Below are positions 7,950 to 51,254 of a stretch of 64,000 bases of DNA, in pieces; position 1 is the first letter of the stretch, and each line of letters opens with the position of its first letter. Origin of the DNA: a virus. The stretch covers positions 64,001-128,000 of the IMG/VR virus record IMGVR_UViG_3300045988_183134. One strand, written 5' to 3'. Made by a program: the position numbers and the translations under genes. Under the pieces are notes generated by a model, which was not told the DNA's origin, did no database searches, and saw nothing but the letters and a program-made list of their open reading frames with translations.

Positions 7950-8066
7950 TTGCGTATTCGTGCGAAACGCATACAATAAAAATTGTATGATAGATAACAG
8001 CACACATACGCTATAATTTCACAATTCTGAGAAGCAGACTATCCGTTTGGAGGTCTGCTTTTTTTG
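7950..8066 (+). promoter_or_regulatory. promoter-leader module, copy 1 (diverged)
   Basis: TTGCGT-N4-GTGCGAA-N5-TACAAT (7950-7977); box1 TTGTATGATAGATAAC (7983); box2 remnant TTTCACAATT; hairpin GCAGACT..AGGTCTGC plus T7 (8034-8065). Confidence 0.6.
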
Positions 8067-8128
8067 TTGGAATTTTGCGGTGCTTTGCTGACGTTTATCG
8101 TAACTAAACACTACAAGGAGAAAGAAAA

Positions 8129-8452
8129 ATGACCGTAACGAACACTGTAACAGAAACAGAACACTTAACTCCCCTGCGTTCCGCTGTAGAGCACATCAAC
8201 TGGAATACTTTGTACCAGCAGAAAATGGCTCTCGAAGAAGTCTCTGACATGCTCTATGCCAAGAGAAAAGAGGATGACACGTTTGGCAAGGCTTCCGCCT
8301 GGCTCGAAAGCGTCATTGCACTCATGGAACGCTTGGGGGATGCAGCAGAAGAGGAAGGAAAGTTTAATTATCCCGAGCGGGACGAAAACGATGAACATCT
8401 GGATAACAGGTTCAATCATGTGTTGAATCAGTACCCGGATGTGGATATCTGA
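8129..8452 (+). CDS. hypothetical protein (107 aa)
   Basis: AAGGAGAAAG RBS; first gene after module copy 1. Confidence 0.6.
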   Translation: MTVTNTVTETEHLTPLRSAVEHINWNTLYQQKMALEEVSDMLYAKRKEDDTFGKASAWLESVIALMERLGDAAEEEGKFNYPERDENDEHLDNRFNHVLNQYPDVDI

Positions 8453-8473
8453 CCAGTTCATATCAGGAGGACA

Positions 8474-8719
8474 ATGATGCGGATTAACAGCAGTTGTGTG
8501 CTTCACAGCACCACGAGTCTCAACGCAAGAGTTCTTCCGCTCATTGGACGGGTCGGAACTCTTGAGCTGTCAAGTGGGCAGCCACTCGTATTCAAAACAA
8601 CAACACCAAAGCAACAAGACGTCCTGCGTACCAGCACAGTAAAAGCTATTGGCTTTGCAGGAAGCAGAATTTTTGTCAAAACCGAAAGAGGAACCCAATA
8701 CACATTTGAATTCCAATAA
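8474..8719 (+). CDS. hypothetical protein (81 aa)
   Basis: CAGGAGG RBS 5 nt upstream of the ATG. Confidence 0.55.
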   Translation: MMRINSSCVLHSTTSLNARVLPLIGRVGTLELSSGQPLVFKTTTPKQQDVLRTSTVKAIGFAGSRIFVKTERGTQYTFEFQ

Positions 8720-8724
8720 CACCC

Positions 8725-8775
8725 AAGCGGCCACTAATCTCATTTTTTATAGATTGGCGGCCGCTTTTATTTTTA
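8725..8775 (+). terminator. probable terminator
   Basis: AAGCGGCC ... GGCGGCCGCTT followed by a T-rich run; the loop is long. Confidence 0.45.
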
Positions 8776-8802
8776 TCATTTTTTTGAAAGGAAGTTTTTA
8801 AC

Positions 8803-9687
8803 ATGAATTTCATCAATGCCGCCACCAAGAAAGAACGCACCCATGTAGAAGAAATTATCAAGTCTCAGCCTGTTATGCCTCATGAAGGCATAACTGCCAC
8901 TGAGATTGGTATTTGCGGCAAGCAGAATCTTTTCATGGACGTTTATCGCCCGGATAACGATGCCGAAAAGCATCCGATTATCATCGATATCCATGGCGGC
9001 GGCTTGATTGCTGGCCGGAAAGAACAGAATCAGAACCTGGCAACCTGGCTCGCTAAGGAAGGCTATCTCACCTTTGTACCGGATTACCGTCTGGTCCCTG
9101 AAACCAACATCTTTGGTCAAATCACTGATGTCATCAATGCGTTTGCTACTGTAGCTGAATGCGCTGAAGACTTCGGTGGTGACTTGAATCAGGTCTTTGT
9201 AGTAGCCGACAGCGCTGGCGCATTCCTTGCCTGCATGGCAAGCTCTATTCTCCGCTATCCTGTCAAGATGCAGCCGGTAGAGGACGAACTGGAAGAGAAC
9301 GTACCCGAGGCAGCCAAGAAGCTCGTCATCAACGCGATGGGCCTGCAGAGCGGTATGTATTACATCTACAAGGGCCAGGTAGGTTTGCTTCAGAACTACT
9401 ATATGTCTAAGGGCTGGAAGAATCACAGTTATGCTGAGTTCATCAAGCCTGAAACCTATTCCAAACTCATCCCCCCGTGCTATATCTGCACCGGGAAAAA
9501 GGACTTTCTCAAGAAACAGACTTTTGGGTTTAAGAAATGCCTCGAAAACGAGCGCGTTCACCACGACTACGGTTTTGTTTCCAAGAGAGAAACGGTCCAT
9601 GCTTTTGCAGCGCTCTATCCTGAGACTGAATCTGCAGTCGGTGTGAACCGCGAGATGATTCGATTCTTTGACACCTTCAAAAAATAA
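8803..9687 (+). CDS. alpha/beta hydrolase, hormone-sensitive-lipase-like esterase (294 aa)
   Basis: HGGG oxyanion motif (IIIDIHGGGLIAG), nucleophile elbow (VVADSAGA), and a late H in VHHDYGF. Confidence 0.8.
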   Translation: MNFINAATKKERTHVEEIIKSQPVMPHEGITATEIGICGKQNLFMDVYRPDNDAEKHPIIIDIHGGGLIAGRKEQNQNLATWLAKEGYLTFVPDYRLVPETNIFGQITDVINAFATVAECAEDFGGDLNQVFVVADSAGAFLACMASSILRYPVKMQPVEDELEENVPEAAKKLVINAMGLQSGMYYIYKGQVGLLQNYYMSKGWKNHSYAEFIKPETYSKLIPPCYICTGKKDFLKKQTFGFKKCLENERVHHDYGFVSKRETVHAFAALYPETESAVGVNREMIRFFDTFKK

Positions 9688-9702
9688 CAAGGAGCATATT
9701 TT

Positions 9703-10113
9703 ATGACTCACAACGAAATGGTTCATGGTCTCTGCACGCAGGAAACTATTACCGTACAGGACTTTGCTGAACTGATACGATTCACGCTCGATGCCAATGA
9801 AGAAGTCATCTACGACGGATGGATTAACGTCTACGTCCCTATCTGGTTCGATGCAGACAAAGCATTTGGCCTTGATTTGAACTCAGAAGAAAATGCAGAT
9901 TGGATTAACATGTACATTGACTGGCATCCGGACGATACCATTCGTACATACATTTCCTACTGCAACAATTCCACCGATGACCCCGACTTCAATCTCGAAA
10001 TCATCATGAGCCCTCACCACCGGGAATTGTTCAATGCGTATTTCAAAGAACAGTTTAAGGCGGTTTATCACATGAGTGTCGAAGAAGCGTGGGCTAAATT
10101 CGGCACCGAATAA
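9703..10113 (+). CDS. hypothetical protein (136 aa)
   Basis: AAGGAG RBS; tightly packed in the operon. Confidence 0.6.
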   Translation: MTHNEMVHGLCTQETITVQDFAELIRFTLDANEEVIYDGWINVYVPIWFDADKAFGLDLNSEENADWINMYIDWHPDDTIRTYISYCNNSTDDPDFNLEIIMSPHHRELFNAYFKEQFKAVYHMSVEEAWAKFGTE

Positions 10114-10132
10114 TATAGTGAGGAGATATATC

Positions 10133-10626: not shown

Positions 10627-11169
10627 ATGGTTGAAATGGCATTCAAAGTAAATCCCGGTTCCGAATTCTACAAGAATTATTTTTCGACAAAGGAGGAAAA
10701 AGCGCACTTCGTTGAAATTGCAAAGCAGTTCTTCGACAAATATTTCCCTGATGAGAAGCTTTCGTATGTTTTGAATGACCGGTTGACGGTCGAATTGACA
10801 CCAGAGCTGCTCGCCAAATACGAATCTCAGGTCATGAAACGCCGTGACCCTCACGGTTTTGTCATCTTCAAACAGCGTTCGCCCATGAACTGCCTGTGGG
10901 AAGATGAGGTCTGTAAGAACGTGAACGGCAAGAAATTCCTTGCCAACCAGTTCTGGTGGGCCAACTTCAACGGTTTTGGCCGCATCACTACGGAGCTGTG
11001 GGATGATGAGCAGGGAAATATCTACGGATATTATTCCTGCGAATATGCAACTCGCAGCACCAAGGTTCCAGACACCGTTACGCAGATTAAGCTGAGTGAA
11101 TATCACGCGGCTTGCGAAGCATACACGGAAGCCAAAAAAGCAACTGCTGACGCCGCTGCTACAGCTTGA
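10627..11169 (+). CDS. hypothetical protein (180 aa)
   Basis: AAAGGAG RBS. Confidence 0.6.
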   Translation: MVEMAFKVNPGSEFYKNYFSTKEEKAHFVEIAKQFFDKYFPDEKLSYVLNDRLTVELTPELLAKYESQVMKRRDPHGFVIFKQRSPMNCLWEDEVCKNVNGKKFLANQFWWANFNGFGRITTELWDDEQGNIYGYYSCEYATRSTKVPDTVTQIKLSEYHAACEAYTEAKKATADAAATA

Positions 11170-11296
11170 CGCTGCTTGCGATGCCGGTAAAATTGTGAAT
11201 GTACGATAGATAGCATCTGCGCATTTCAGCACTCGTACAATTCACAAACTGATACAACTAGGCAGACTCATCACCACGATGGGCCTGCCTTTTTTG
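11166..11296 (+). promoter_or_regulatory. promoter-leader module, copy 2
   Basis: TTGACG-N4-TTGCGAT-N5-TAAAAT (11166-11193); ATTGTGAATGTACGATAGATA (11191-11212); CTCGTACAATTCACAA (11232-11247); hairpin GGCAGACTCA..TGGGCCTGCC plus T6 (11261-11295). Confidence 0.7.
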
Positions 11297-12298: not shown

Positions 12299-12431
12299 TT
12301 GCACATTCGTGCGAGACTCATACAATTAGAATTGTACGATAGATACCAGCAATCGAAAAGGTGCTTTGCCTTTCGTACAATTCACATTTCGCTTGAAGGC
12401 GGACTTCCAATATCTGGAGGTCCGCCTTTTT
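12299..12431 (+). promoter_or_regulatory. promoter-leader module, copy 3
   Basis: TTGCAC-N4-GTGCGAG-N5-TACAAT (12299-12326); TTGTACGATAGATACC (12332); TCGTACAATTCACA (12373); GGCGGACTTCC..GGAGGTCCGCC plus T5 (12398-12431). Confidence 0.75.
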
Positions 12432-12460
12432 GCGTACTTACAAAAAAAGGAGTGTAAATT

Positions 12461-12751
12461 ATGTTTATCATCACAAAAACTTTTACCGATGACGAGGGCC
12501 ATCTTTTCACAAAGGTAAATCCAAAGCAGTATTCCACTCCCGGAGAAGCATACGATGCTATGCGTGAGGATTACCTCAACGAGCTCAAAAGCCGAGGTCT
12601 TGAGGACAACGGTAGTTCCAATGACGATGGCGAATCCTGCCCTGGCGGATACATCATCAGCGATGAGGCTCAAATCTACGATTTTGCCCAATACACCCCG
12701 TATGAACAGCTTCTTCCTGCTGTTTTGTTCGGAGTCCATCGGATTGGTTAA
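12461..12751 (+). CDS. hypothetical protein (96 aa)
   Basis: AAAGGAGTGTA RBS conserved with other modules. Confidence 0.6.
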   Translation: MFIITKTFTDDEGHLFTKVNPKQYSTPGEAYDAMREDYLNELKSRGLEDNGSSNDDGESCPGGYIISDEAQIYDFAQYTPYEQLLPAVLFGVHRIG

Positions 12752-12762
12752 GGAGAATCGCA

Positions 12763-13569
12763 ATGGCTAAGAAAAGTGCAAGAAAAGAAATCACAAAAAT
12801 CAACCTGAAACAAGCTGCGCTCGAAGGTCTTTCCTACGAGAGAGCCTGTGAAACTGCCAAGCGTGCAGGGACCCCCTCTTATCGCTTCACGGTCGGCGAC
12901 AAAGTACAGGTTGGTCACCTTCTAAACTGCGTTGTTGACGAGGCTCTGGAAGGCGGGTACATGTATCTTATCCGCAGTGGTGCAAATTGTGACGACTATT
13001 CCTGCTGGGCCTGGACAAGTGTTCGCCCACTGGATAATGGCAATAGCACGCATTTTGCCAAGCGCAATTCTGCACTGTCCCGCCTGCACTACTCAAACCG
13101 CAGCATGTACTCTCTGCTCAGCTTCCAATACCTGTTCGGCATTGATTTCAACCCTGATTATCAGCGTGGTTCTGTTTGGGGTGATGAGGACAGGGAAAAG
13201 CTGTTGGACAGCATCTTTATGGGTCGCGAGATTGGTCGTTTCGTCTTTAAGCAGCTGCCATTCACTCGCACAAGCAACGATGGCAACTACTATGAAATCG
13301 TTGATGGCAAGCAGCGTATGTTGACCTTGCTTGCTTTTTACGAAAACCGATTCCCGTACAAAGGTGTATTTTACAACGACCTTTCCGTTCTGGATAAAAA
13401 CTGGTTCATGGATGCTTCCATTGGTGTTGCTGAACTTGACCAGAATGCGACCCGTGCGGAGGTCCTGGAAGTATTTCTCGCTCTGAACGAAGGCGGTAAG
13501 CCTGTCACAAAGGAAGTCCTCGACCATGCACGCGAATTGCTGAACGAAGAGAAGGGAGAAGGATTATGA
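12763..13569 (+). CDS. DUF262 / ParB-like nuclease-domain protein (268 aa)
   Basis: DYQRGSVWGDEDREKLLDSIFMG and YEIVDGKQRMLTL match the DUF262 (GmrSD N-terminal) signature. No HNH/DUF1524 half is present. Confidence 0.7.
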   Translation: MAKKSARKEITKINLKQAALEGLSYERACETAKRAGTPSYRFTVGDKVQVGHLLNCVVDEALEGGYMYLIRSGANCDDYSCWAWTSVRPLDNGNSTHFAKRNSALSRLHYSNRSMYSLLSFQYLFGIDFNPDYQRGSVWGDEDREKLLDSIFMGREIGRFVFKQLPFTRTSNDGNYYEIVDGKQRMLTLLAFYENRFPYKGVFYNDLSVLDKNWFMDASIGVAELDQNATRAEVLEVFLALNEGGKPVTKEVLDHARELLNEEKGEGL

Positions 13570-14243
13570 GTCCCATGTTCAAACAAAAGGTCGGTATGAC
13601 GAAAATTTATGCAAAAGGAATCGCAGAACTCTTTCTTATTCGCTGCAATCCCTATCATTGGGACGGCAGCGGGGAAGTGCCTGATAACATCAGCTTCGAT
13701 GTGTACAAGCGAAAAATCGATGAAACATACGATGGCTGCACACTCGAAATTCAGCTTTGCAAACCTGATGGTTGTCTTTGCTATGCGGCTTCTGTTCACC
13801 TGTATGAAGGCGGATTCTGGACAGGGCACGGCATTGGCTGTTTCGACAAGACTGCGATTTGCAACGACCCTGGTTCTGTCGATGCCTTGACAAGCGCCAT
13901 CATGCGAGTGTGCATGATATACGAAAATCTCACAAATTTCCGCAAGGTTTTCGTCAAGTGCCTTACCATCAGCCAGAAACGAATGAACGAAATCAAGCAG
14001 TATACCGATGACGGCAAAGAGCAGGATGAGATTGAGTTCGAATCCGTTGTCTTCGCCGATGGTATGCACATGGATGTTCGCTGCATCCCACGCCACAATG
14101 GACCTTCCTGGTGCGAAGCGGCTATTTATCGTGAGGATGAGGATATCGTCACGTCTGAGCCGAGCAACTCGTTCTACAGCCATTGGGTTTGCCAGACGGC
14201 AAACGCCACCTACCATCTTTATATAGGTATTGCTGACGAATGA
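13566..14243 (+). CDS. hypothetical protein (225 aa), shares a C-terminal domain with 19291..20601
   Basis: ATGA start/stop overlap with the upstream gene. FADGMHMDVRCIP..SWCEAAIY aligns with FSDGYSMDIRCCG..SWAEAILY. Confidence 0.6.
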   Translation: MSPMFKQKVGMTKIYAKGIAELFLIRCNPYHWDGSGEVPDNISFDVYKRKIDETYDGCTLEIQLCKPDGCLCYAASVHLYEGGFWTGHGIGCFDKTAICNDPGSVDALTSAIMRVCMIYENLTNFRKVFVKCLTISQKRMNEIKQYTDDGKEQDEIEFESVVFADGMHMDVRCIPRHNGPSWCEAAIYREDEDIVTSEPSNSFYSHWVCQTANATYHLYIGIADE

Positions 14244-14246: not shown

Positions 14247-14382
14247 TTGACGCGCCTTGCGAACAGCATATCATAGAAATTGTACGATAGATACCAATAA
14301 TCGAAAGGGCATTTTGCCTTTCGTACAATTCACAATTTCGCATGAAGAGCGGACTTCCCACATCGGGAGGTCCGCTCTTTTT
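14247..14382 (+). promoter_or_regulatory. promoter-leader module, copy 4
   Basis: TTGACG-N4-TTGCGAA-N5-TATCAT (14247-14274); TTGTACGATAGATACC (14280); TCGTACAATTCACAAT (14321); GAGCGGACTTCCC..GGGAGGTCCGCTC plus T5 (14347-14382). Confidence 0.75.
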
Positions 14383-14412
14383 GCGTTATAACAACAAAAG
14401 GAGTGTATTTTT

Positions 14413-14898
14413 ATGAAAATGACAATCACAGGCCAAATTGATGGCAAATCCGTGCCGATAACTATTCCGATTGAAAAAGTTATCGAAGCTTTCTGGCCTT
14501 ACGCCACCAAACCTTCTGCTCTCTCTGTTTCCACTGAGCTTGACGCAGACGGCATCAGTGCTAACTTTATGCTCGGCCAGGAAACGAAGGATTCTTATCC
14601 CGGTATCTGGCTCACCAGCAAAAACAGCAATACCGGTCGTGCAGGTTTCTGGTTCTGTTTGGAGCTGCCGAACGAAACCAACGACATGGTAAAAGGCTAT
14701 CTGTACGCTGGCGATGATGAAACAGAGACGGACCAACCTCTAGCTGTTATCGCTGATGGCGTTCGCAACGACGACGATGACTCAAAGCGCATGCTTTGGG
14801 TGGATGAGTCGTTGACTCACGTTGAACCTCTAACCGACAACTATCTGAAACGCCAAGGCGCTGCCACCGAAAAGCAACTCGATGAGTACGACGCTTAA
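14413..14898 (+). CDS. hypothetical protein (161 aa)
   Basis: AAAGGAGTGTA RBS. Confidence 0.6.
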   Translation: MKMTITGQIDGKSVPITIPIEKVIEAFWPYATKPSALSVSTELDADGISANFMLGQETKDSYPGIWLTSKNSNTGRAGFWFCLELPNETNDMVKGYLYAGDDETETDQPLAVIADGVRNDDDDSKRMLWVDESLTHVEPLTDNYLKRQGAATEKQLDEYDA

Positions 14899-16030: not shown

Positions 16031-16061
16031 AGAGTCCCGCAGAAATGCGGGGCTCTTTTTT
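16031..16061 (+). terminator. intrinsic terminator
   Basis: AGAGTCCCGC-agaaat-GCGGGGCTCT followed by T6. Confidence 0.7.
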
Positions 16062-16062: not shown

Positions 16063-16201
16063 TTGCCAAAATATGCGATTCAGCTAAAATGAAAATTGTA
16101 CGATAGATACCATCTACTTGGCGCGTTTTTTTTGCGTTCGTACAATTCACAATTCTGCAAGCAAAGAGCAGACTCACCGTCTTGGTGGGCCTGCTTTTTT
16201 T
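16063..16201 (+). promoter_or_regulatory. promoter-leader module, copy 5
   Basis: TTGCCA-N4-ATGCGAT-N5-TAAAAT (16063-16090); TTGTACGATAGATACC (16096); TCGTACAATTCACAATT (16138); GCAGACTCACC..GGTGGGCCTGC plus T7 (16168-16201). Confidence 0.75.
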
Positions 16202-17021: not shown

Positions 17022-17150
17022 TTGCTCAAACGTGCGATTCCACTAAAATTGAAATTGTACGATAGATAACAGCCCTATGGCCGAAATGCGTACAATTTAC
17101 AATTCTGCAAGACAATCAGCAGACTCACCATCTCGGTGGGCCTGCTTTTT
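17022..17150 (+). promoter_or_regulatory. promoter-leader module, copy 6
   Basis: TTGCTC-N4-GTGCGAT-N5-TAAAAT (17022-17049); TTGTACGATAGATAAC (17055); GCGTACAATTTACAATT (17088); GCAGACTCACC..GGTGGGCCTGC plus T5 (17119-17150). Confidence 0.75.
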
Positions 17151-19086: not shown

Positions 19087-19093
19087 CATTTTT

Positions 19094-19124
19094 GCCGCTC
19101 ATTCTCGGATGGGCGGCACTTTTT
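19094..19124 (+). terminator. intrinsic terminator
   Basis: GCCGCTCAT-tctcgg-ATGGGCGGC followed by a T run. Confidence 0.7.
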
Positions 19125-19126: not shown

Positions 19127-19260
19127 TTGCCAGGCTGTGCGAATGGCATAGAATAATAACTGTACGATAGATACCATTCTACCAAGGCGCATCCTGCGTT
19201 CGTACAATTCACAATTCTGCTTTAAGGCGGACTTCCCGAATTTGGGAGGTCCGCCTTTTT
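19127..19260 (+). promoter_or_regulatory. promoter-leader module, copy 7
   Basis: TTGCCA-N4-GTGCGAA-N5-TAGAAT (19127-19154); CTGTACGATAGATACC (19160); TCGTACAATTCACAATT (19200); GGCGGACTTCCC..GGGAGGTCCGCC plus T5 (19226-19260). Confidence 0.75.
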
Positions 19261-19290
19261 GCGTTCAAAAAAGGAGTGTATTAGAAAATT

Positions 19291-21890: not shown

Positions 21891-22022
21891 TTGCCCCAGT
21901 GTGCGAACCGCATAAAACAGTAACTGTACGATAGATACTATCTAAAGCACAATTCGTGTTCGTACAATTCACAATCTGCAAACAGGCGGACTTCCCGAAT
22001 TTTGGAGGTCCGCTATTTGTTT
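21891..22022 (+). promoter_or_regulatory. promoter-leader module, copy 8
   Basis: TTGCCC-N4-GTGCGAA-N5-TAAAAC (21891-21918); CTGTACGATAGATACT (21924); TCGTACAATTCACAAT (21960); GGCGGACTTCCC..GGAGGTCCGC plus a T-rich tail (21985-22022). Confidence 0.7.
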
Positions 22023-23292: not shown

Positions 23293-23323
23293 GCCGCTCA
23301 TCTTCGGATGGGCGGCATTTTTT
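23293..23323 (+). terminator. intrinsic terminator
   Basis: GCCGCTCAT-cttcgg-ATGGGCGGC followed by a T run. Nearly identical to the terminator at 19094. Confidence 0.7.
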
Positions 23324-23325: not shown

Positions 23326-23461
23326 TTGCCAAAATGTGCGAACCGTATAGAATGGTATTTGTACGATAGATACCATCTACTAAGGCACTATTTGCGTTCG
23401 TACAAAAATTCATAATTTCGCTGAGGCGGACTTTCCGAAAAATCGGGAGGTCTGCCTTTTT
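23326..23461 (+). promoter_or_regulatory. promoter-leader module, copy 9
   Basis: TTGCCA-N4-GTGCGAA-N5-TAGAAT (23326-23353); TTGTACGATAGATACC (23358); TCGTACAAAAATTCATAATT (23398); GGCGGACTTTCC..GGGAGGTCTGCC plus T5 (23425-23461). Confidence 0.75.
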
Positions 23462-23480
23462 GCGTAGAAGGGAGTATTTT

Positions 23481-25249: not shown

Positions 25250-25386
25250 TTGCTGATACGTGCGAATCAGAGATAATAATATTTGTACGATAGATATCAT
25301 TTGTCTTTGACAAGGTCTCTTGTGCATGTACTATTCACAATTTCGTTGAAGAGCGGACTTCTTGTTATTCAGGAAGCCCGCTTTTT
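25250..25386 (+). promoter_or_regulatory. promoter-leader module, copy 10
   Basis: TTGCTG-N4-GTGCGAA-N5-GATAAT (25250-25277); TTGTACGATAGATATC (25283); GCATGTACTATTCACAATT (25325); GAGCGGACTTCTTG..CAGGAAGCCCGCT plus T5 (25351-25386). Confidence 0.7.
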
Positions 25387-25414
25387 ATATTAAATTTTAA
25401 GGAGTGTATTATCT

Positions 25415-26705: not shown

Positions 26706-26894
26706 ATGACAATCCCTTCGATTCCTTGTCCTTCCTGTGACTTTACGCTCAAGCCTGTCTGGTTCTTAGAAAAGGAGCTGGACAATCACGGCATCCCGAC
26801 CGGACGCACTCGCAAGGCTTGCAGTTGCTTGCTCTGTGATGCGTGCGGGCACAAGGAAACGGTAGATGATACATTTGATGAGCCATACAAATAA
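26706..26894 (+). CDS. zinc-ribbon small protein (62 aa)
   Basis: GGGGAG RBS. CPSCDF ... CLLCDACGH. Confidence 0.55.
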   Translation: MTIPSIPCPSCDFTLKPVWFLEKELDNHGIPTGRTRKACSCLLCDACGHKETVDDTFDEPYK

Positions 26895-26910
26895 ACATGA
26901 GGTGACAAAA

Positions 26911-27078
26911 ATGGTTCGTTTTTATACGCCAAGCTTGTATGGGGCATGCGATGCTCTTGACCTTTACGACATCGACTACGATTTGGATGATGGCGACCGC
27001 ATTATGGTAGACGATTCTCTCTACGATGCTGCTCTCGACGCATTCGATGAGTATGACATTGAGTATGAGGAGGTGTAA
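26911..27078 (+). CDS. small acidic protein, family member 1 of 3 (55 aa)
   Basis: GAGGTG RBS. MVRFYTPSLYGACDALDLYDIDY...YDAALDAFDEYDIEYEEV. Confidence 0.55.
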   Translation: MVRFYTPSLYGACDALDLYDIDYDLDDGDRIMVDDSLYDAALDAFDEYDIEYEEV

Positions 27079-28451: not shown

Positions 28452-28551
28452 GCGTTAGTCGCGTTCGGGCAGCTTCTTTGTTGACAGCCAGGCTGTGCTG
28501 CTGTACGATAATTTCATCGCATCCGAGTCTTAATATTTCTCGTGTTTTTGT

Positions 28552-28670
28552 TTTGACTTCGCTTGCAACCGCCATATACTCTTTAGTGTACAATTGACGA
28601 CATCCTAATCGTCCGTATTCACAATTCTGCAGACAATGGCAGACTTACCGCTTTGGTGGGCCTGTTTTTT
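28552..28670 (+). promoter_or_regulatory. promoter-leader module, copy 11 (degenerate, drives no ORF)
   Basis: TTGACT-N4-TTGCAAC-N5-TATACT (28552-28579); GTGTACAATTGAC; CGTATTCACAATTC (28614); GGCAGACTTACC..GGTGGGCCTG plus T6 (28639-28670). Followed directly by copy 12. Confidence 0.55.
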
Positions 28671-28710
28671 ATGCATTGATGCCGCTTGCTGTTAAGCAGG
28701 TGGTTTTTTG

Positions 28711-28846
28711 TTGACGCTGCTTGCGAACGGCATAAACTTTTAGTTGTACGATAGATATCATCTACCAGGCGCGTTTTGCGTTCGTACAATTCACAATCTC
28801 GTACAATGAAGGCAGATTCACTTTCGGGTGAGTCTGCCTTTTTTGT
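28711..28846 (+). promoter_or_regulatory. promoter-leader module, copy 12 (left copy of the 145-bp direct repeat)
   Basis: TTGACG-N4-TTGCGAA-N5-TAAACT (28711-28738); TTGTACGATAGATATC (28744); TCGTACAATTCACAAT (28782); GGCAGATTCAC..GTGAGTCTGCC plus T6 (28811-28846). The RBS is followed by only ATG-ATA-TAG. Confidence 0.75.
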
Positions 28847-28995
28847 TTGTGATAAAGGAGGAAAACGTATGATATAGCAACGCTAAAATACTTTGTGTCA
28901 ATGTTGTTTTTTGTTGAACCGAGAACTTTTTTGTGCTACAATAAATGTAAAGACAAAAGAGCTCTCCTAAATTTTGAAAGAAAGGAGAGTCCGTA

Positions 28996-29820: not shown

Positions 29821-29957
29821 TTGACGCCGCTTGCGAACGGCATAAACTTTTAGTTGTACGATAGATATCATCTACCAGGCGCGTTTTGCGTTCGTACAAT
29901 TCACAGTCTCGCACATTGAAGGCAGATTCACTTTCGGGTGAGTCTGCCTTTTTTTGT
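29821..29957 (+). promoter_or_regulatory. promoter-leader module, copy 13 (right copy of the 145-bp direct repeat)
   Basis: Near-identical to copy 12 (4 substitutions and 1 indel by eye). Confidence 0.75.
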
Positions 29958-29988: not shown

Positions 29989-30210
29989 ATGATTGCAAAC
30001 CTAAAAATCGGTCCGTGCCCTAAGTGTGGAAGCACTACGTTCCATGCGACAGCACACGTCACTCAGACCTGGCTTGTTGATGAGGACGGCGAGTTCATCA
30101 AGGCCGAGACCAACTGCGATGAGGTAACTCATTCTCCCGACACTGAGGACTTGTTTGAGTGCTCTAAATGCGGGGCTGAGGTTCCAGCAAAGTATGTGTA
30201 CAGCGAATGA
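29989..30210 (+). CDS. zinc-ribbon small protein (73 aa)
   Basis: CPKCGS ... CSKCGA. The track start at 29938 lies in the module terminator. Confidence 0.6.
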   Translation: MIANLKIGPCPKCGSTTFHATAHVTQTWLVDEDGEFIKAETNCDEVTHSPDTEDLFECSKCGAEVPAKYVYSE

Positions 30211-31073: not shown

Positions 31074-31191
31074 TTGACCGCGCTTGCGGAATGAATAAAA
31101 TCAGTCTTGTACGATGGATACCAGCAAATCCATAGTTATTCACAACCTGTAGCAGAAAGCAGACTCATCTTCGGATGGGCCTGCTTTTTTT
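31074..31191 (+). promoter_or_regulatory. promoter-leader module, copy 14 (diverged)
   Basis: TTGACC-N4-TTGCGGA-N5-TAAAAT (31074-31101); CTTGTACGATGGATACC (31107); TTATTCACAACC (31137); GCAGACTCATC..GATGGGCCTGC plus T7 (31159-31191). Confidence 0.65.
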
Positions 31192-34355: not shown

Positions 34356-34611
34356 AAAAAATATAAAAATCATAAATACAGGAGAGCGAATCGCAGTGAC
34401 AGATTTACTTGGCAATATGATGCGGAATGTGCGAATTGACGAATAAAGAAGAGCGCACGCCCCGTCTATAGCCGTAAGGCTTAGGCGGGGTTAGCTCGTG
34501 TTTAAGGACAAGAATCAGGATTTTTTATTTTCCGTTCTGATAAAGGTATTGCCTGGTTGTGCGAACTGGATACTGTAAAATTATAGTGAACCGCAAGGGA
34601 GGTGAGCCACT

Positions 34612-35721
34612 TTGAAAGTACATAAAGGCTATAAATTTCGGCTAGAGCCTACAGAAGAACAGAAAGTCAAAATCAATAAAACGCTCGGCTGCTGCCGTTT
34701 TGTATATAACTCTATGCTAGATAGGCGTATAAAAGCTTATCAACGGCGCGGTGAAAGTATGAGCTATATTGATACACAAAATCTGCTTCCTCAGATGAAA
34801 ACTTATCTTCCTTGGCTTGCTGAAGTAGATAGTCAAGCACTCAAATATAGCTGTCGTCAGTTAAATAATGCCTATAAAGGCTTTTTCGAAGACGGTAAAG
34901 GGTTCCCCCAATTCAAACGAAAACGGGGAGAAGAAAGCTATACAACTACAAAAGCAAAAAGCATTAAAGTTGACGAAAAGTACATTCAGCTTCCGACACT
35001 TGGGAAGATGCGTTATCGTAAGAGTCGCAACATTGAGGGACGCATCTGTAAGGCAACAATCCGTCGCTCAGCAAGCGGCAAATACTATGTAAGTATTCTT
35101 TGCGAAGTAGAAGTAATGCCGCTTCCGGTTAAAGATACCGTCATCGGTTTAGATGTTGGCATCAAATCTTTTGCTGTTGACAGCAATGGAAAAGAATATC
35201 CAAACAATAAATATCTTCAGAAAGCGGAAGCTAAACTAAAGCGTGAGCAGAAAAAGCTGTCACGCAAAAAGAAAGGTTCTGCCAACTGGGAGAAGCAACG
35301 TATCAAGGTGGCTTGCTGCCACGAAAAAGTGACCAATAAGCGAAAAGATGCCCTACACAAGTTGTCATCTACACTGGTGAAAGAAAACCAAATCATCTGT
35401 GTAGAAGACCTCAATGTAAATGGTATGGTTCGCAATCACAACCTTGCTAAAAGTATTTCCGATGTTTCTTGGGGAGAGTTCTTCCGACAACTTGATTATA
35501 AATCCAGTTGGGCAGGAAGAGCAGTTGTAAAAATACCAACCTTCTATCCAAGCAGCCAGACCTGCTCTTGCTGCGGCTACCAAAACAAAGAGGTAAAAAA
35601 CCTCAATGTTCGGCATTGGGTCTGTCCGAAATGTAACACATCACACGATAGGGATAAAAATGCAGCAGAAAACATTCTAAAGAAAGGAATGGACATGCTG
35701 GCTACGCCAGCCGCCTCATAG
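34612..35721 (+). CDS. tnpB: TnpB RNA-guided endonuclease (369 aa), TTG start
   Basis: [18 protein letters not shown]-terminus. RuvC D ([12 protein letters not shown]), E (ICVEDLNV), zinc finger (CSCCGYQ..CPKCN), D ([11 protein letters not shown]). GGGAGGTG RBS. Confidence 0.9.
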
Positions 35722-37661: not shown

Positions 37662-39812
37662 ATGCTAAATAACAGCTATACAAAAACGAATACCATCTTC
37701 GGACAGGCGCTTGGATGCACTGCCCTTGATGACGCATTTGTAAAGCTGCTGAGTGATGTAAATGCCGATGGCGTGACTCAGTTCCTGATTCGGACAAATG
37801 GCGAAGAGAAAATGAAGACCGTTGCCCAAATCAATTCTGAGTCTCTGGAAGCGGGTGTTCGTGAGCGCATCTTTGATAAAGTCAGCCCGAAATATGGGAC
37901 CCCGACTTATTGGGATACCTCTACCAACATCTACTTCTCCATCAATACGTTCCATCCTCAGAAATCTCTGCGCGGAAAAGGTATCCGTCGTAAGGCGGAT
38001 GTCGAAAAGCTGCGCGCTCTGTTCTTTGACATTGATTGCCACGGCGAAAACGCACCAGCTGACATCAGCGACCGCATCGGTGAACTTGTACTGGATGCCG
38101 TGAATCATCATGAGATTCCGGACTGTGCAGTTTCTAACAGCGGCCGTGGTGTTGGCTTGTTTGTGTTTCTTGAACCCTGCAACCCAAACAATCTCTCTTA
38201 CGGCTTGGCCTACAGCGGCGTACATAGAGCAATTTCTCTCAAGCTGAATGAGTTGATTGAGAAGGCCCAGTTCACGGCAAATGTTGAGCTGGATAAGGCG
38301 GTTCATGAAACCAACCGCGTTGCTCGTCTGCCTGGTACTTACAACACCAAGGCAAAACGCTGCTGCCATTGTATTCGGGTCCCTGAAGGAAAGCCCTTCA
38401 ACCTGCTGAAGCTCGCCGACCAGTATGAAGTCCCTTATCGGTTTGCTGATGAGAAAGTTGCTCCGTCTGACGCGAATTTCAACAAGACTGAGGACGAAAT
38501 CCTTGACTGGGCTAAAAAGCGCTTCGCGGCAATGTGCATGCGCTATCCGCATCTTCTTGAAGTTCTGAACAATTACAAGAAGAAGGAAGAACGGAAAGCA
38601 AACTTCGTCTGCCGCTTTGAGCTGGCGCTTCGTTACCTTCAGGCAAATCCGTGTGGTGAAGGAAACCGCCACAACACCCTCTTGGCTGTACTTTCCACCT
38701 GCTATGACCGTGGCGGTCATCCGGATATGGATAAGGCACAGCTCATCAACCGCACTTTTTCTCAGCCACTTTCTGACAAGGAAGTTGCGCATCTCGTTTC
38801 CACCTGCAAATACCCTTGCAAGAACTCGACGATTGAAGCACTCTCCGGCATTCCCGCAAGTGCTCTCAAGAATCCCAAAGCTAAGGCGGAAGGGAAGAAG
38901 AACGAAAGCGAATCTAAGCCAAAGCGTTACGAAAAAGGCGAAATTCCGCCTCCGATTGCAAGCTCCAAGGCTGACCGTTACATGCTCGGTGTTCTCATCA
39001 ACCACGGCATCATTCCCGACCTCCGCATCCGGAACCATCGTCAGAAGTACGAGGCTCAGGAACGCCGGAAACAGCGCATGGTCATCTATGACCGTATCCC
39101 GGAACTCTATGCTTCCGGAATGTCCGTTCGTGCCATTGCAAAGGAACTGAAAATCTCGGTTCCCACTGTATATGAGCAGGCTAAAGTGCGTGGTCTTGAT
39201 ATCGTGGAGAAGGAACAGCAGGCATTCCGCGTCAAGAACCTGACAGCTCAGCGACTCGTTGAGATGGGATATCAGAAGCAGAAAGTTGCTGAACTGATGG
39301 GCGTTAACCGGAACACGGTGTTCAACGCTCTGAACCGGACTTTTGATTCTGTGTCTGAAGAAGACCTTATGCTCATTGACAAGGCGGTTAATAAGCTCAT
39401 TGGTCGTGTCGAGGTTATCGTGGAGACTCCCGAACCACAGACGGCTGACGAGCTGGAAACGGCAAAGCCGCAGGAAGCTAATGAAACTACTGTGACTGCT
39501 GAATCCGCTGAAACTGCTGAGACGGTTGCGACCGCCAAGGCTGCGGACAGTACCGAGACCGTCACTACCGAGAAGGAGTGTTCTTCTAAGGATGACAACA
39601 AGCCAGACGACAATGTACCTTTTGCTCCATTCAGTGATGCGTACAATCAGCTGTGCTTTGAACCTCAATCCCACAAAGGTTGGCACTCCGTCAAGGATGC
39701 GTTGAACAACTACGCGACCAGCTGCTGCTCTGCGATAAGTCAGCTCTGGGATGGCGTTGGCAAAGTTCAAAGGCACTTTGACTACGGTCGAGCGCAGCAA
39801 GCCGCAACCTGA
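37662..39812 (+). CDS. replication protein: primase-polymerase-like N-terminus, PriCT-like middle, two C-terminal HTH motifs (716 aa)
   Basis: LRALFFDIDCHGEN (acidic catalytic motif), SNSGRGVGLFVF, NRVARLPGTYNTKAKR, PriCT-like NRHNTLLAVLSTCYDRGG..PLSDKEVAHLVSTC. HTH segments: MSVRAIAKELKISVPTVYE and KQKVAELMGVNRNTVFN. Confidence 0.55.
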   Translation: MLNNSYTKTNTIFGQALGCTALDDAFVKLLSDVNADGVTQFLIRTNGEEKMKTVAQINSESLEAGVRERIFDKVSPKYGTPTYWDTSTNIYFSINTFHPQKSLRGKGIRRKADVEKLRALFFDIDCHGENAPADISDRIGELVLDAVNHHEIPDCAVSNSGRGVGLFVFLEPCNPNNLSYGLAYSGVHRAISLKLNELIEKAQFTANVELDKAVHETNRVARLPGTYNTKAKRCCHCIRVPEGKPFNLLKLADQYEVPYRFADEKVAPSDANFNKTEDEILDWAKKRFAAMCMRYPHLLEVLNNYKKKEERKANFVCRFELALRYLQANPCGEGNRHNTLLAVLSTCYDRGGHPDMDKAQLINRTFSQPLSDKEVAHLVSTCKYPCKNSTIEALSGIPASALKNPKAKAEGKKNESESKPKRYEKGEIPPPIASSKADRYMLGVLINHGIIPDLRIRNHRQKYEAQERRKQRMVIYDRIPELYASGMSVRAIAKELKISVPTVYEQAKVRGLDIVEKEQQAFRVKNLTAQRLVEMGYQKQKVAELMGVNRNTVFNALNRTFDSVSEEDLMLIDKAVNKLIGRVEVIVETPEPQTADELETAKPQEANETTVTAESAETAETVATAKAADSTETVTTEKECSSKDDNKPDDNVPFAPFSDAYNQLCFEPQSHKGWHSVKDALNNYATSCCSAISQLWDGVGKVQRHFDYGRAQQAAT

Positions 39813-49005: not shown

Positions 49006-49052
49006 TCAAGGCTTTTGCGGTTGCAACTGACATCAAGGAGGGTATCAATCAA

Positions 49053-49256: not shown

Positions 49257-49331
49257 CAATAAGCCGTTGCCTATGCTGGGGGCAGCGGCTTCTTCTCTTT
49301 GCTACGCAGTGCTGTCGGCCTCACAAATCTC

Positions 49332-49459
49332 TTGCAATATTGTGCGAACAGCATATCATAAAAAATGTACGATAGATAACAGCCTTTTGGCCCAATGCGT
49401 ACAATTCATATTCTGCAGCTAAATTAGCAGACTCACCAATTCGGTGGGCCTGCTTTTTT
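49332..49459 (+). promoter_or_regulatory. promoter-leader module, copy 15
   Basis: TTGCAA-N4-GTGCGAA-N5-TATCAT (49332-49359); ATGTACGATAGATAAC (49365); GCGTACAATTCATATTC (49397); GCAGACTCACC..GGTGGGCCTGC plus T6 (49427-49459). Confidence 0.75.
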
Positions 49460-49541
49460 ATTTGCAAGAAAGGAGTGCCGACAGTTTTCTGTCAACCATT
49501 TCCGAAAAAACAAATATCAATCAAAAGAAAGGACAAATTGT

Positions 49542-50084
49542 ATGTTTAACGCAACCTGCCTAATCAAGACCGACATCGATACCGTGAACAAATGTATGGG
49601 GCAAAATCCCTACAATCCTGAGACGTTTCTTCAGAACTTTGCGTCTCGTCTGACATCTTTCAATGACCCCCTTCTCAATATGTACCCAACATCCGAGATT
49701 GCAGGAAACATCGAAGACGAGGATGTTATTCTGGGCCTTCGCGAACCGCAAAAACTCATTGAATGGGCGAAAACCATGAAGGAACGCACGCAGTGCATGG
49801 CAATGGCTGAGTTCAGTGCAGCATTGCAGAAGCATAAAGCAGAAGGCATCGATATCACAAAGCCGATGTATACCTGCCTGCGCTCCATTGAAATGGATTC
49901 CAACGAATCTTATCTTCTTCGCTACGCCGCTGAACTGCTCGACAACCATCCAAACCCGGAATGCGGTGAGCTGTTTTATGACGGCGACTCCTGGAAGTGT
50001 TTCCCAAACGGTTTTCAGCTGAAAGACATCGAAGCTCATGCTGAGGACTACATCATCATTCCGGGGCTGTTCTATGACGACTGA
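49542..50084 (+). CDS. hypothetical protein (180 aa)
   Basis: GAAAGGA RBS. Confidence 0.55.
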   Translation: MFNATCLIKTDIDTVNKCMGQNPYNPETFLQNFASRLTSFNDPLLNMYPTSEIAGNIEDEDVILGLREPQKLIEWAKTMKERTQCMAMAEFSAALQKHKAEGIDITKPMYTCLRSIEMDSNESYLLRYAAELLDNHPNPECGELFYDGDSWKCFPNGFQLKDIEAHAEDYIIIPGLFYDD

Positions 50085-50104
50085 TTGAAAACGAAAGGAA
50101 TTTT

Positions 50105-50341
50105 ATGGACTGGAAATTTATCATGTGTCTGCTCGTTATGTGCTCCACCACCGTCTGGAAGCTTCTGGAAATCCTCACCTACGGTGAGATTCAGGTCCGG
50201 CAGGTGGATGACATCATGATGATGTATATGACATTTACCATCTACGCCGCCTATAAGGCTGGCATGGCGGTTCAGGCCAAAAAAACGAAGCAAACCGAAG
50301 AAAATATCGCAACCACCTCTGATAAGCAAAAAGGAGAATGA
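50105..50341 (+). CDS. small membrane protein (78 aa)
   Basis: AAAGGA RBS; two hydrophobic helices. Confidence 0.55.
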   Translation: MDWKFIMCLLVMCSTTVWKLLEILTYGEIQVRQVDDIMMMYMTFTIYAAYKAGMAVQAKKTKQTEENIATTSDKQKGE

Positions 50342-50345
50342 CTCT

Positions 50346-51113
50346 ATGTATCAGCTGCAAAACATCGATTATCTGTACCGTATCTCGACTATGACCGGCT
50401 CGTCCAAGCTCGTTACCGTTCAGGCGGACAGAGACTCCCATGACCTGAACGATAAGCATTTCGTGATGCTGAATCTGTGCCGGGCAATCGTGAATTTCGC
50501 CAATGAAGGGCACGTGATTTCAGCTGTGTATGAACTGGAACCAGATGGGACCTCCAAGCGGGTTGCCTATCGCGGATTGCCGGAATACCAGGAAGCACTC
50601 AAAGACCCTGAACCGGATGTGATTGTTGCAAAATTTGCAACGAACTTTTCGTCCGGCGCTTCGTTCGCTTCACAATGCCGCGTGAATCAAAAGAGCCGTG
50701 AAGTGTTCGACATTGAGGCTTCCGGGACTCCTTCTGATAATGATGATATTTCTGAACGCCTTGTTTCGCTGGATGACGGCGAACACTGGCATCAGGTTCA
50801 CTGCATTGATGATATCCTCGATGAATACGACGATGATATTGACAATGCTTTGGATGCTCTGTATTCCATCGAAGCTCACGGTGATATCGACGGGGACTAC
50901 TGGTGTACTACCACCGATAAAGACCTGAACCGAACCATTCGTGAATGCCGCACCGAAATTCTCGTTGATGCGCTGCTTGCTCGCGGCTCTGAGGCGGTAG
51001 AAGAATTTCTCGGTTATCCCGTGAATATGTCGGAAGCCGAATGCGTGCTCGAAGAATACCTGAATAACCTGTCCGATGAGGATTTGGCAAACGCCTTCTT
51101 CGAAACTCTTTGA
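50346..51113 (+). CDS. hypothetical acidic protein (255 aa)
   Basis: AAAGGAG RBS. Confidence 0.6.
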   Translation: MYQLQNIDYLYRISTMTGSSKLVTVQADRDSHDLNDKHFVMLNLCRAIVNFANEGHVISAVYELEPDGTSKRVAYRGLPEYQEALKDPEPDVIVAKFATNFSSGASFASQCRVNQKSREVFDIEASGTPSDNDDISERLVSLDDGEHWHQVHCIDDILDEYDDDIDNALDALYSIEAHGDIDGDYWCTTTDKDLNRTIRECRTEILVDALLARGSEAVEEFLGYPVNMSEAECVLEEYLNNLSDEDLANAFFETL

Positions 51114-51123
51114 GTTACCGCAC

Positions 51124-51254
51124 TTGCGCAGATGTGCGAACAGGATATTATAAAAATTGTACGATAGATACCATCTACTAGGCGCGTTTTGCGTTCGTAC
51201 AATTCATAATTTCGCTTGAAGGCGGACTTCCCATACCGGGAGGCCCGCCTTTTT
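51124..51254 (+). promoter_or_regulatory. promoter-leader module, copy 16
   Basis: TTGCGC-N4-GTGCGAA-N5-TATTAT (51124-51151); TTGTACGATAGATACC (51157); TCGTACAATTCATAATT (51195); GGCGGACTTCCC..GGGAGGCCCGCC plus T5 (51221-51254). Confidence 0.75.

Follow-up and report, generated by a model that had tools for sequence, protein, structure and literature searches.

Why should one and the same unit of promoter, folded leader and terminator stand in front of so many unrelated genes? The question is raised by a stretch of 64,000 nt from IMG/VR record IMGVR_UViG_3300045988_183134 (positions 64,001–128,000), called the window here, and all coordinates below are window positions. Each unit, or module, spans ~150 bp, comprises a promoter, a folded leader and a terminator, and has an unrelated accessory gene behind it. 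The element that carries them is large, mobile and found in Clostridia of the human gut. An initial annotation of this DNA had counted sixteen copies in 7950–51254, and the count is right: a box scan and a covariance model give 15 canonical copies and one degenerate copy. Our leading reading, to which we give a little less than an even chance, is that the modules are an element-specific transcription-attenuation leader that controls a regulon of shuffled accessory cassettes. The purpose of such a regulon would probably be establishment or anti-defence. The main evidence is a weak hairpin whose pairing takes in the base of a strong terminator and changes in step with it.

Box 1 (TTGTACGATAGATACC, up to 3 mismatches) was matched 15 times in the window, always on the + strand, where 0.22 matches are expected, and box 2 was matched 11 times on the + strand against 0.24 expected. 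The covariance model (R1), built from 59 diverse leaders, returned 15 strong copies of 50–101 bits, a degenerate 16th copy at 28584–28672 (39 bits) and a diverged 17th copy at 1702–1803 (34 bits), which lies outside 7950–51254. All copies are on the + strand. The scans and the measured spacings bore out the order of parts described in the initial annotation, namely promoter, box 1, variable segment, box 2, hairpin, T-run, ribosome binding site (RBS) and start codon.

Terminator and competing hairpin

The predicted leader RNA has a length of ~102 nt and ends in a hairpin of 23–44 nt with stems of 10–15 pairs (median −18.8 kcal/mol), followed by T5–T7. The elements of an intrinsic terminator, a GC-rich stem of at least 5 bp, a loop of 3–8 nt and a U-run, are all present, and termination itself is predicted. 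In the consensus of 12 pairs, 97% of cells are paired, 8 pairs carry compensatory changes, and no shuffle reaches the observed values. G–U positions in this hairpin had been taken as a sign of function as + strand RNA, and they are real: pair 91–110 is U–G in 42 leaders, U–A in 14 and C–G in 2. Moreover, in three tested copies the + strand folds better than the − strand (fold z of −6.4, −4.5 and −9.3 vs −5.0, −3.4 and −7.1). The conserved U–G pair and the better folding of the + strand together indicate that the structures belong to the sense RNA.

This strand specificity bears on a reading in which the modules act as single-stranded DNA (ssDNA) during conjugative entry, either as priming (ssi) sites or as a Frpo-like single-strand promoter. 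The element is probably conjugative, all copies share one orientation, and for EGeRS1 of plasmid pLS20, likewise a structured repeat, action in ssDNA or RNA is suspected (PMC8708921). However, the G–T positions favour the coding-sense strand, as the template strand would have C–A mismatches there, and both the T-run and the fixed RBS distance are features of RNA. None of the hairpins includes the −35 or −10 hexamer, so that ssDNA would offer no duplex promoter, and a Frpo-like promoter was rejected for this reason. We give the ssDNA reading the slightest chance of all those considered.

The base of the terminator also takes part in a second structure. Segment X (UUCGC, UCUGC or UCCGC), the five nt after the conserved AUUCACAAU, pairs with segment Y (GCGGA, GCAGA or GUGGA), the first five nt of the terminator 5′ arm. 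The resulting X:Y hairpin has 5–7 bp, is weak, overlaps the terminator base and covaries with it. The nascent window from AUUCACA to terminator nt 10 folds as X:Y in 92% of 116 distinct leaders, with a median of −5.2 kcal/mol. Cognate X:Y duplexes reach −6.0 kcal/mol vs −5.3 kcal/mol for non-cognate ones (permutation p < 0.0005), and controls with shuffled Y and with another leader window gave −3.1 and −2.7 kcal/mol, respectively. When X was re-registered on the model-based alignment A5 of 114 distinct leaders, 558 of 570 cells were paired; the central pair is C–G in 52 leaders, U–A in 40 and U–G in 18, and the incompatible C–A occurs in 4 vs ~22 expected.

An alternative hairpin that lies over the 5′ arm of the terminator and is conserved by covariation, as in terminator/antiterminator leaders, is therefore present. 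As a predicted fold, a weak X:Y that overlaps a strong terminator is the classical antiterminator/terminator arrangement. Because X:Y is weak and the terminator is strong, termination would be the default unless the weak hairpin is stabilised. X may have a further partner in leaders of the GGCGGACU flavour, where a conserved GCG(U) complementary to X (CGC) follows the T-run (12427–12436, 14378–14387, 19256–19265 and 23457–23466). In minimum free energy folds the terminator stem could lengthen through A-tract:U-tract pairs to X:GCG in read-through RNA only, and GCG(U) could be a third pairing partner of X that exists in the read-through transcript only.

For the start of transcription, the termination event, the factor in trans and the trigger, we infer the following attenuation model. 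Host σA RNA polymerase would start at a strong TGCGA-type promoter, and the transcript would begin with box 1 and fold in such a way that a first helix, P1, closes the loop GAUAGAUAMC, with an optional helix P2 and a variable helix P3 inside. Single-stranded AUUCACAAU and the weak X:Y (~−5 kcal/mol) would follow, the 3′ half of X:Y being the first 5–7 nt of the terminator (~−19 kcal/mol), which would end 20–35 nt before the start codon. By default the terminator would win and most transcripts would stop as ~100-nt RNAs, and the accessory genes would be made only when terminator formation is prevented. The agent would be a factor encoded by the element, in all likelihood a protein that binds RNA; once attached to the invariant loop and the single-stranded box, it would make X:Y more stable. 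The cassettes, 16 to 25 or more in number, would thereby react in concert as a single regulon, for instance when the plasmid has entered a new host. A bolder version, which we regard as doubtful, would make the leader a new cis-regulatory RNA class with its own element-encoded antiterminator (or anti-antiterminator) that controls the whole hypervariable accessory/anti-defence set of a very prevalent gut megaplasmid family, with the units doubling as its recombination sites.

Several observations weigh against attenuation. X:Y is weak, and its true covariation lies in one pair, plus wobble changes. The leaders are kin by descent and recombination, so that the statistics overstate their independence, and the identity between copies is partly due to recombination and not to selection. 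X does not overlap P1, which leaves no obvious structural link between the 5′ domain and the switch. Conservation of box 1 exceeds the need of pairing, and its position at +1 to +16 would suit a DNA operator or a sigma-dependent pause site equally well. In addition, establishment genes are expected to be ON in a naive recipient, and a strong terminator predicts OFF by default. A regulator did not emerge either: the ~90 open reading frames (ORFs) of the window (Pfam, PHROGs and PADLOC) and 20 kb flanks (Pfam) gave no match to families of the CAT/ANTAR, Q, N, NusG or LoaP type, a search that covered 84 kb of an element of roughly 230–390 kb, and no antiterminator, sigma or repressor candidate among these ~90 ORFs could be tied to the modules with the same three collections.

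The 5′ domain as RNA helix or DNA operator

At the RNA level, conservation is strongest in UGUACGAUAGAUA and AUUCACAAU. The 5′ part of the leader typically folds into the three helices P1, P2 and P3. In P1, AUUGUACGA of box 1 is paired with UCGUACAAU of box 2; the helix starts at the predicted +1 and closes the conserved purine-rich loop GAUAGAUAMC. P2 is an optional small hairpin (UAGAU-AnC-AUCUA), and P3 is a hairpin of variable sequence that abuts box 2. From box 1 to AUUCACA the median distance is 45 nt.

The inner hairpin had been described as changing in sequence while keeping its pairing, and P3 behaves in this way, with more than 20 different stems in which pairing is kept, a mean z of −2.1 vs shuffles and 66% of leaders below −1.64. 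Rare core variants of P1 are compensated as well: UGUAUG/CAUACG in copy 7983, AGUGU/ACACU, and GUGCG/CGUGC via two G–U pairs. The P2 variant UGGAU is compensated by AUCCA in copy 31107. The outer positions of P1 vary without compensation, with ACT, AAT and GTT variants opposite an unchanged AAT. In the large set of leaders, covariation of P1 was masked, since box 1 belonged to the search pattern and hence no double changes occur, and RNAalifold on a MAFFT alignment recovered the terminator only. Box 2, which the initial annotation placed in every copy as the inverted partner of box 1, is indeed such a partner in most copies; it is missing or degenerate in copies 7983, 31107 and 25283, and the top conservation of the 3′ side belongs to AUUCACAAU and not to the whole of box 2.

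The same boxes may be read as DNA operators. Box 1 (+1 to +16) and box 2 match the near-palindrome TYGTACRA, and one master repressor, comparable to EGeRS2/Reg of p576 or SPBRE/MrpR of SPbeta, could keep the cassettes shut in an established host and allow transient firing after transfer, with a terminator that only insulates and damps leakage. This would agree with the near invariance of box 1 over 13–16 nt, some of which stay unpaired in all RNA models, with its overlap with the predicted start site and with the uncompensated outer positions of P1. Precedents with one operator at ~4–10 promoters of a mobile element exist (PMC8708921, PMC10516654), and the genes behind the modules look like establishment/anti-defence genes (solitary methyltransferase, DUF262/NsnA-like, small acidic proteins). 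However, the distance from box 1 to ATTCACA, which stands directly after box 2, ranges from 17 to 72 nt, and the boxes keep a fixed complementary orientation in which every box 1 reads TTGTACGA and every box 2 the reverse complement, without a single swap. Pairing is kept in P3 despite sequence change, for which a DNA site has no need, and P1 contains compensation by G–U only. Moreover, an operator leaves AUUCACAAU, X:Y and the constant terminator unexplained, and no ribbon-helix-helix (RHH) or helix-turn-helix (HTH) repressor was recognised behind any module. We consider the operator reading unlikely.

A related proposal of the initial annotation, a 5′-terminal stabiliser hairpin combined with an operator pair, gains from the position of P1 at the predicted +1 and from conservation of box 1 beyond pairing, and is less supported than attenuation. 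Recognition of DNA and RNA may even coincide, because P1 repeats, as an RNA helix, the exact sequence of the box 1 DNA duplex, and one protein could bind both. The anti-CRISPR regulator Aca2 reportedly binds both DNA and RNA.

Two other functions of the 5′ domain were rejected. A leader peptide (ATG TAC GAT AGA TAA/TAG) could be read in two copies only, most copies having TTG and none a Shine–Dalgarno (SD) sequence. A K-turn or a pseudoknot of the conserved loop with AUUCACAAU found no complementarity.

Copies, genes and promoters

The 17 copies are as follows.

Module 1, 7950–8065, + strand: −35 at 7950; box 1 variant TTGTATGA that pairs with a compensating CATACG; without canonical box 2; gene at 8129; 50 bits.
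Module 2, 11166–11295, + strand: promoter, leader and terminator; gene at 11320; 79 bits.
Module 3, 12299–12431, + strand: inner hairpin CGAAAAGG/CCTTTCG; gene at 12461; homology breaks at 12373 and 12458 relative to sister contigs; 93 bits.
Module 4, 14247–14382, + strand: gene at 14413; homology breakpoint at 14258; 101 bits; fold z −9.3.
Module 5, 16063–16201, + strand: terminator flavour GCAGACTCACC/GGTGGGCCTGC; gene at 16230 (NT5C-like); 99 bits.
Module 6, 17022–17150, + strand: genes from 17180 (unknown, GNAT, zeta-like kinase); 73 bits.
Module 7, 19127–19260, + strand: the example of the initial annotation; gene at 19291; 94 bits; fold z −6.4.
Module 8, 21891–22020, + strand: gene at 22042 (solitary N6 DNA methyltransferase); 74 bits.
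Module 9, 23326–23461, + strand: AAA insertion in box 2; gene at 23481 (YopX); 77 bits.
Module 10, 25250–25388, + strand: degenerate box 2 (ATGTACT); gene at 25415; 72 bits.
Module 11, 28553–28672, + strand: degenerate orphan; promoter present, GATAGATA absent; keeps ATTCACAAT, the X segment and the terminator; 39 bits.
Module 12, 28711–28844, + strand: RBS and remnant of a 2-codon ORF at 28869; next real gene at 28996; 91 bits.
Module 13, 29821–29954, + strand: gene at 29989, then Bro-N/ANT at 30306; 89 bits.
Module 14, 31074–31191, + strand: short form without box 2; box 1 variant UGGAU that pairs with a compensating AUCCA; gene at 31221 (DUF3232); 53 bits.
Module 15, 49332–49460, + strand: gene at 49542; 72 bits.
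Module 16, 51124–51254, + strand: gene at 51283; 99 bits.
Diverged 17th copy, 1685–1803, + strand: promoter, leader and terminator in the same order; 34 bits.

Coupling of the modules to genes is close. The start codon lies 19–34 nt past the T-run in 12 of 15 copies. Among 145 distinct copies with enough downstream sequence, 144 have an SD sequence and an ORF of at least 40 codons behind them, at a median of 29 nt from the T-run, and in 126 of these 144 the start is at most 60 nt from the T-run. Standing directly before SD and ORF in this way, the modules are gene leaders and not free-standing genes of small RNAs.

A family of terminated small RNAs was one of the proposals of the initial annotation. 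The ~100-nt RNAs would then be the product, acting as small RNAs or decoys with AUUCACAAU as an exposed 'seed', and the genes would receive incidental read-through. The shape is suggestive, with stem-loops at the 5′ end, then a conserved stretch without pairing and a terminator with U-tail; many strong promoters would mean a high dose, and one orphan copy (28553–28672) has no gene. That orphan is degenerate, however, and 144 of 145 copies stand directly before RBS and ORF. The + strand of the window holds no excess of complementary targets, as searched with AUUCACAAU and GAUAGAUACC for a partner RNA in trans. Small RNAs as the main role are thus very unlikely.

The orphan, module 11, is followed directly by the promoter of module 12. 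Behind module 12, a good RBS and ATG ATA TAG, i.e. 2 codons (28869–28877), look like the remnant of a deleted cassette gene, and the next real gene begins 151 nt past the T-run. The orphan and this stump are decay products of cassette loss. Close by, 28481–28509 is a deletion derivative of a module, in which TGTACGATAAT comes straight after the −35 and the initial half of the spacer (…GGCTGTGC); TACGAT of box 1 is placed 17 nt after TTGACA there and was scored as a −10 hexamer, and TACGAT is thus −10-like. More strong copies are found in sister contigs L131–L134, 10 kb to the left of the window (L131 6143–6241, L133 226–325), where the left-flank modules adjoin a gene of NAD-dependent DNA ligase. 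With these extra copies, the array must be longer than the 17 copies of the window.

The module-driven genes are unrelated to each other. They encode an esterase, DUF262/GmrSD_N (NsnA-like), a GNAT acetyltransferase, a zeta-like kinase, a solitary N6 methyltransferase, YopX, Bro-N/ANT (antirepressor-like), an NT5C-like nucleotidase, DUF3232, zinc-ribbon proteins and many small, very acidic proteins. The last group (8129–8452, 9703–10113, 14413–14898, 26866–27078, 49542–50084 and 51283–51912; e.g. 19 D/E per 70 aa or 26 per 136 aa) had no Pfam match for any member and is reminiscent, by composition, of DNA-mimic anti-restriction proteins.

In 6 of 15 cassettes a cassette-end terminator stands just upstream of the next −35, as at 16031, 19093, 23293, 28681 and 29784. 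Three of these (19093–19118, 23293–23316 and 28681–28704) are related, with the form GCCGCTCAT(T)CTYGGATGGGCGGC, and are without the GCRGACU of leader terminators; this similarity suggests that some copies of the repeated unit may reach further upstream. In the other 9 of 15 modules no terminator precedes the module's promoter, and the leader terminator is there the only stop of the upstream operon.

The module promoters match the −35/−10 hexamers at 9–10 of 12 positions with a 16-nt spacer in a consensus scan. TTG, −11A and −7T are invariant in 15 window copies as well as in 186 copies, and the distance from the −10 to TGTACGA is 6 nt. These are the features of a σA/σ70 promoter, with a predicted start site. 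The sigma-A type named in the initial annotation was therefore correct, and what it had missed is an invariant TGCGA in the spacer, at about −23 to −19. An invariant TGCGA at this position is not a known feature of σA promoters.

Every recognisable promoter of the element has the form TTGnnn-N5-TGCGA-N6-TAnAAT with a 16-nt spacer, and TGCGA is the signature of all the element's promoters. It may be the mark of a promoter-specific factor or of a host-specific preference. An alternative sigma factor, ECF-type or other, reading TGCGAA and box 1 was rejected, as AAC is not conserved. The same promoter type occurs without leader at 1451, 4638, 34328, 34549, 42605, 46256, 48034 and 54687. Those at 4638, 42605, 46256, 48034 and 54687 precede backbone genes, e.g. 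the topoisomerase III operon and a surface-protein operon, and that at 34549 is in front of a TnpB gene (OrfB_IS605 / Cas12f-like TNB, 34549–35721). Since TGCGA promoters also stand leaderless before backbone genes, the leader appears as an add-on for a subset of genes.

Promoter and terminator together invite comparison with Q-dependent antitermination. Behind its promoter, lambda PR′ has a −10-like hexamer within the first 10 nt and a terminator ~100 nt further on (6S RNA). The module matches this layout, with TACGAT at about +5 to +10 and the terminator at about +75–100. TACGAT keeps A2 and T6 of the −10 consensus and, in the deletion derivative at 28481–28509, scored as a −10 hexamer 17 nt after TTGACA. 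It could make σA pause the polymerase at about +20, where an antiterminator loads; or the 5′ RNA could modify the polymerase in the manner of put or canT. However, the sole candidate for a Q-binding site, TGCGA, also occurs at leaderless promoters, neither the window nor its 20 kb flanks yielded a Q, N, NusG or LoaP family, and no antitermination RNA of Rfam was matched. Cassette-end terminators and 16 separate promoters would be pointless under processive read-through, and covariation at the RNA level would have no explanation. We hold Q-type or other processive antitermination to be highly improbable.

Local control fits better than processive control with the 6 of 15 cassettes that have their own end terminator, and it is also more natural because in put-, Q-, N- and conAn-type systems one site per operon suffices. 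The initial annotation had left open element-wide antitermination or attenuation. Attenuation is favoured by the covarying X:Y at the terminator base, and the processive part is disfavoured by the cassette-end terminators, by the lack of a put, nut or conAn match in Rfam and by the lack of an antiterminator family among the ~90 ORFs.

Host element, cassette exchange and known systems

The surroundings, previously described as a generic element, can be named more specifically. Topoisomerase III is closest to that of conjugative plasmids of Clostridium perfringens and C. baratii (37% identity, vs 27% to 'phage' records), and 4054 of its best 5000 plasmid matches are on conjugative plasmids. A sortase and a PcfJ-family gene lie just right of the window, and an LRR/DUF285/Big_2 surface protein and TnpB lie within it. 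No phage structural genes were found among the window proteins with PHROGs. Related contigs have 200–291 kb and a GC content of 0.42–0.52, and the window proteins fall in clusters of 1,500–6,700 members on contigs of up to 291 kb from human-gut assemblies.

'Hodor' megaplasmids of the human gut are described in a 2026 preprint (PMC12934698) as having 211–389 kb, 47.1% GC in group 1, multiple sortases, a surface-protein module and TnpB; geNomad consistently calls them viral, they are missing from plasmid databases, and they occur in >9,000 metagenomes. The window element fits in size, GC, sortase, surface protein, TnpB, presence in IMG/VR and absence from PLSDB, and is likened to them by description only. 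From its gene content, the element is most likely a 'Hodor'-type conjugative megaplasmid wrongly classed as viral. A phage early region, first assumed from the IMG/VR hits, YopX and Bro/ANT, was dropped on account of topoisomerase III, the sortase and PcfJ genes, PHROGs and the preprint. Likewise, the 278-aa protein at 54772, a capsid candidate by position, was modelled poorly (pLDDT 59), and the membrane helix and beta-sandwich of this model are not capsid-like.

The module pattern is abundant in IMG/VR contigs of 30–270 kb. In 185,579 species genomes, a search for the exact pattern, which could miss distant relatives, found it in 2, both Clostridiales metagenome-assembled genomes with multiple copies on large contigs that resemble the element's; the same aptamer in chromosomal genes of many bacteria, as expected of a generic riboswitch, was not found in this search. 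A motif confined to this element is not what a general metabolite riboswitch would predict, and speaks for an element-encoded signal. GenBank phages and PLSDB plasmids gave no match to the region or to a single module (megablast, blastn), and Rfam 15 gave nothing at gathering score, with chance-level matches only at E up to 5. The preprint (PMC12934698) does not mention promoters, terminators or intergenic repeats, and the module thus appears undescribed.

The window contains other mobile or DNA-binding features. A HEARO (omega) RNA was matched at 59616–59872 (95.5 bits), and an IscB-like RRXRR/HNH gene (59925–61295) follows it directly. A second IscB-like gene (4972–6642) is an insertion polymorphism, present in the window and in L131 (~80% identity), with an empty site in L132–L134, two of which carry IscB elsewhere. 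A 716-aa protein (37662–39812) resembles a primase/polymerase in its N-terminal part (phrog_2478) and carries two HTH motifs (HTH_7/HTH_23, Terminase_5-like) at its C-terminal end; labelled by JGI as a CsgD-family regulator, it is the sole sizeable DNA-binding candidate of the window and is not linked to the module.

Cassettes are exchanged at the modules. In a megablast comparison of the window with ~120 related loci, in which distinct internal homology breakpoints were counted, 20 of 62 fell inside modules vs 6.7% expected from depth-weighted coverage (p ~2e-9), which is a ~5-fold enrichment. In sister contig L134, the cassette 12461–14243 is swapped for another gene, with junctions at 12373 (leader 3) and 14258 (promoter 4), and in L132 the homologous stretch stops at 12458, immediately ahead of the start codon. 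Different junctions fall at different points of the module, which indicates homologous and not site-specific recombination. Integron attC-like sites were rejected on the same ground and because core-site motifs are absent. As suggested by these alignments, the near-identical ~150-bp units most likely serve also as homologous-recombination linkers for cassette exchange.

Breakpoint clustering also fits a module that is only a constitutive cassette head. P1, which begins at the predicted +1, would shield the 5′ end from RNases, the terminator would insulate and pass a fixed fraction of the cassette's transcripts, so that a strong promoter yields a low dose, and identity would be kept by recombination (concerted evolution), as in PeSL, an experimentally supported precedent of recombining promoter/stem-loop cassettes (PMC2839356). 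The 9 of 15 modules whose leader terminator is the only stop also agree with it. However, it does not explain why the unpaired GAUAGAUAMC and AUUCACAAU are constrained while their neighbours vary freely, nor why X:Y covaries. A terminator of ~−19 kcal/mol behind its own promoter would be a costly way to damp expression, and backbone genes do without the leader. This reading is, in our judgement, quite improbable.

If the attenuation reading is true, a single small RNA switch governs no fewer than 16 unrelated accessory genes, and probably others, on an element whose proteins are listed in thousands of assembly-collection blocks, mostly human-gut metagenome assemblies. A search for the leader alone would then define the establishment/anti-defence regulon of the element, and the ~100-nt RNA would be a new attenuator family with clear mutational predictions. 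It would also be a second independent case, after PeSL, of regulatory cassettes that drive modular gene shuffling, here on a Gram-positive plasmid. In addition, the module is a compact promoter, insulator and 5′ untranslated region part for engineering gut Clostridia.

In protein-dependent attenuators of Bacillota (BglG/LicT-RAT, ANTAR, PyrR and TRAP), a weak antiterminator overlaps the 5′ arm of a strong terminator before the gene. The leader described here has the same layout, and its conserved unpaired nucleotides suggest recognition by a protein. Those attenuators serve one or few chromosomal operons, as against at least 16 plasmid cassettes here; the leader has no sequence or Rfam similarity to them, and the cognate domains are not in the window.

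A cis element after the promoter that decides on terminator read-through is also known from HK022 put (PMC9378689), conAn2 of pLS20 (PMC8191782), canT of Tn916 (PMC11658703) and lambda Q. With one or two sites per element, these exert processive control along long operons, conAn2 being a large RNA with a partner protein (PMC8191782), whereas here a 100-nt unit stands before each small cassette. The zipper-type attenuator cATT of pLS20 (PMC13401043) is likewise a terminator/antiterminator leader of a Gram-positive conjugative plasmid; it is a single leader of 456 nt before the conjugation operon, with a long extended antiterminator stem and without repeated cassettes (PMC13401043).

The initial annotation knew of no described system with this repeated layout. 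Repeated regulatory units before many variable genes are in fact known from PeSL, EGeRS1/2 and SPBRE/MrpR; none of these has the order of promoter, structured leader and terminator. PeSL of T4-like phages (PMC2839356, PMC4122927) comes close, with ~100–150 bp of strong promoter and terminator stem-loop repeated before accessory/ORFan genes in a hypervariable region, and with copies that recombine and shuffle cassettes. The composite before accessory genes and junctions in cassettes are found in the window too. An overlapping stem-loop is not: that of PeSL lies within or overlaps the promoter and stops upstream transcription only, whereas the terminator here is ~70–100 nt past its own start. 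Moreover, the module has a conserved structured leader with a competing hairpin, shares no sequence similarity with PeSL and belongs to a probable plasmid of Bacillota and not to a T4-like phage.

EGeRS1/2 of the pLS20 family (PMC8708921) are conserved repeats before operons of variable establishment/anti-restriction genes on a Gram-positive conjugative plasmid, and they define a regulon. EGeRS2 is a strong σA promoter with regulator sites, sometimes just past the start site, and in the window a promoter and repeated boxes are present; EGeRS1 is structured and blocks read-through one way (PMC8708921). In contrast to the module, EGeRS2 is without a leader terminator and has dual heptamer operators bound by an RHH repressor, and EGeRS1 has 420–750 bp, is GC-rich and is promoterless (PMC8708921). 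There are 4–5 copies of EGeRS per plasmid vs at least 16 here, the sequences do not resemble each other, and none of the genes here was identified as Reg-like. In SPBRE/MrpR of Bacillus prophage SPbeta (PMC10516654), a short element at ~10 promoters answers to one master regulator. SPBRE differs in being a 15-bp DNA operator of a recombinase-like repressor, without RNA structure or terminator, and no MrpR-like protein was found here.

Thus the module joins two known ideas, the repeated and shuffling regulatory cassettes of PeSL, EGeRS and SPBRE and the terminator/antiterminator leader. Judged by its departure from the PeSL layout, by the lack of an Rfam match and by the absence of Q, conAn, BglG and ANTAR proteins from the 84 kb examined, it is a candidate new RNA family in a new layout.

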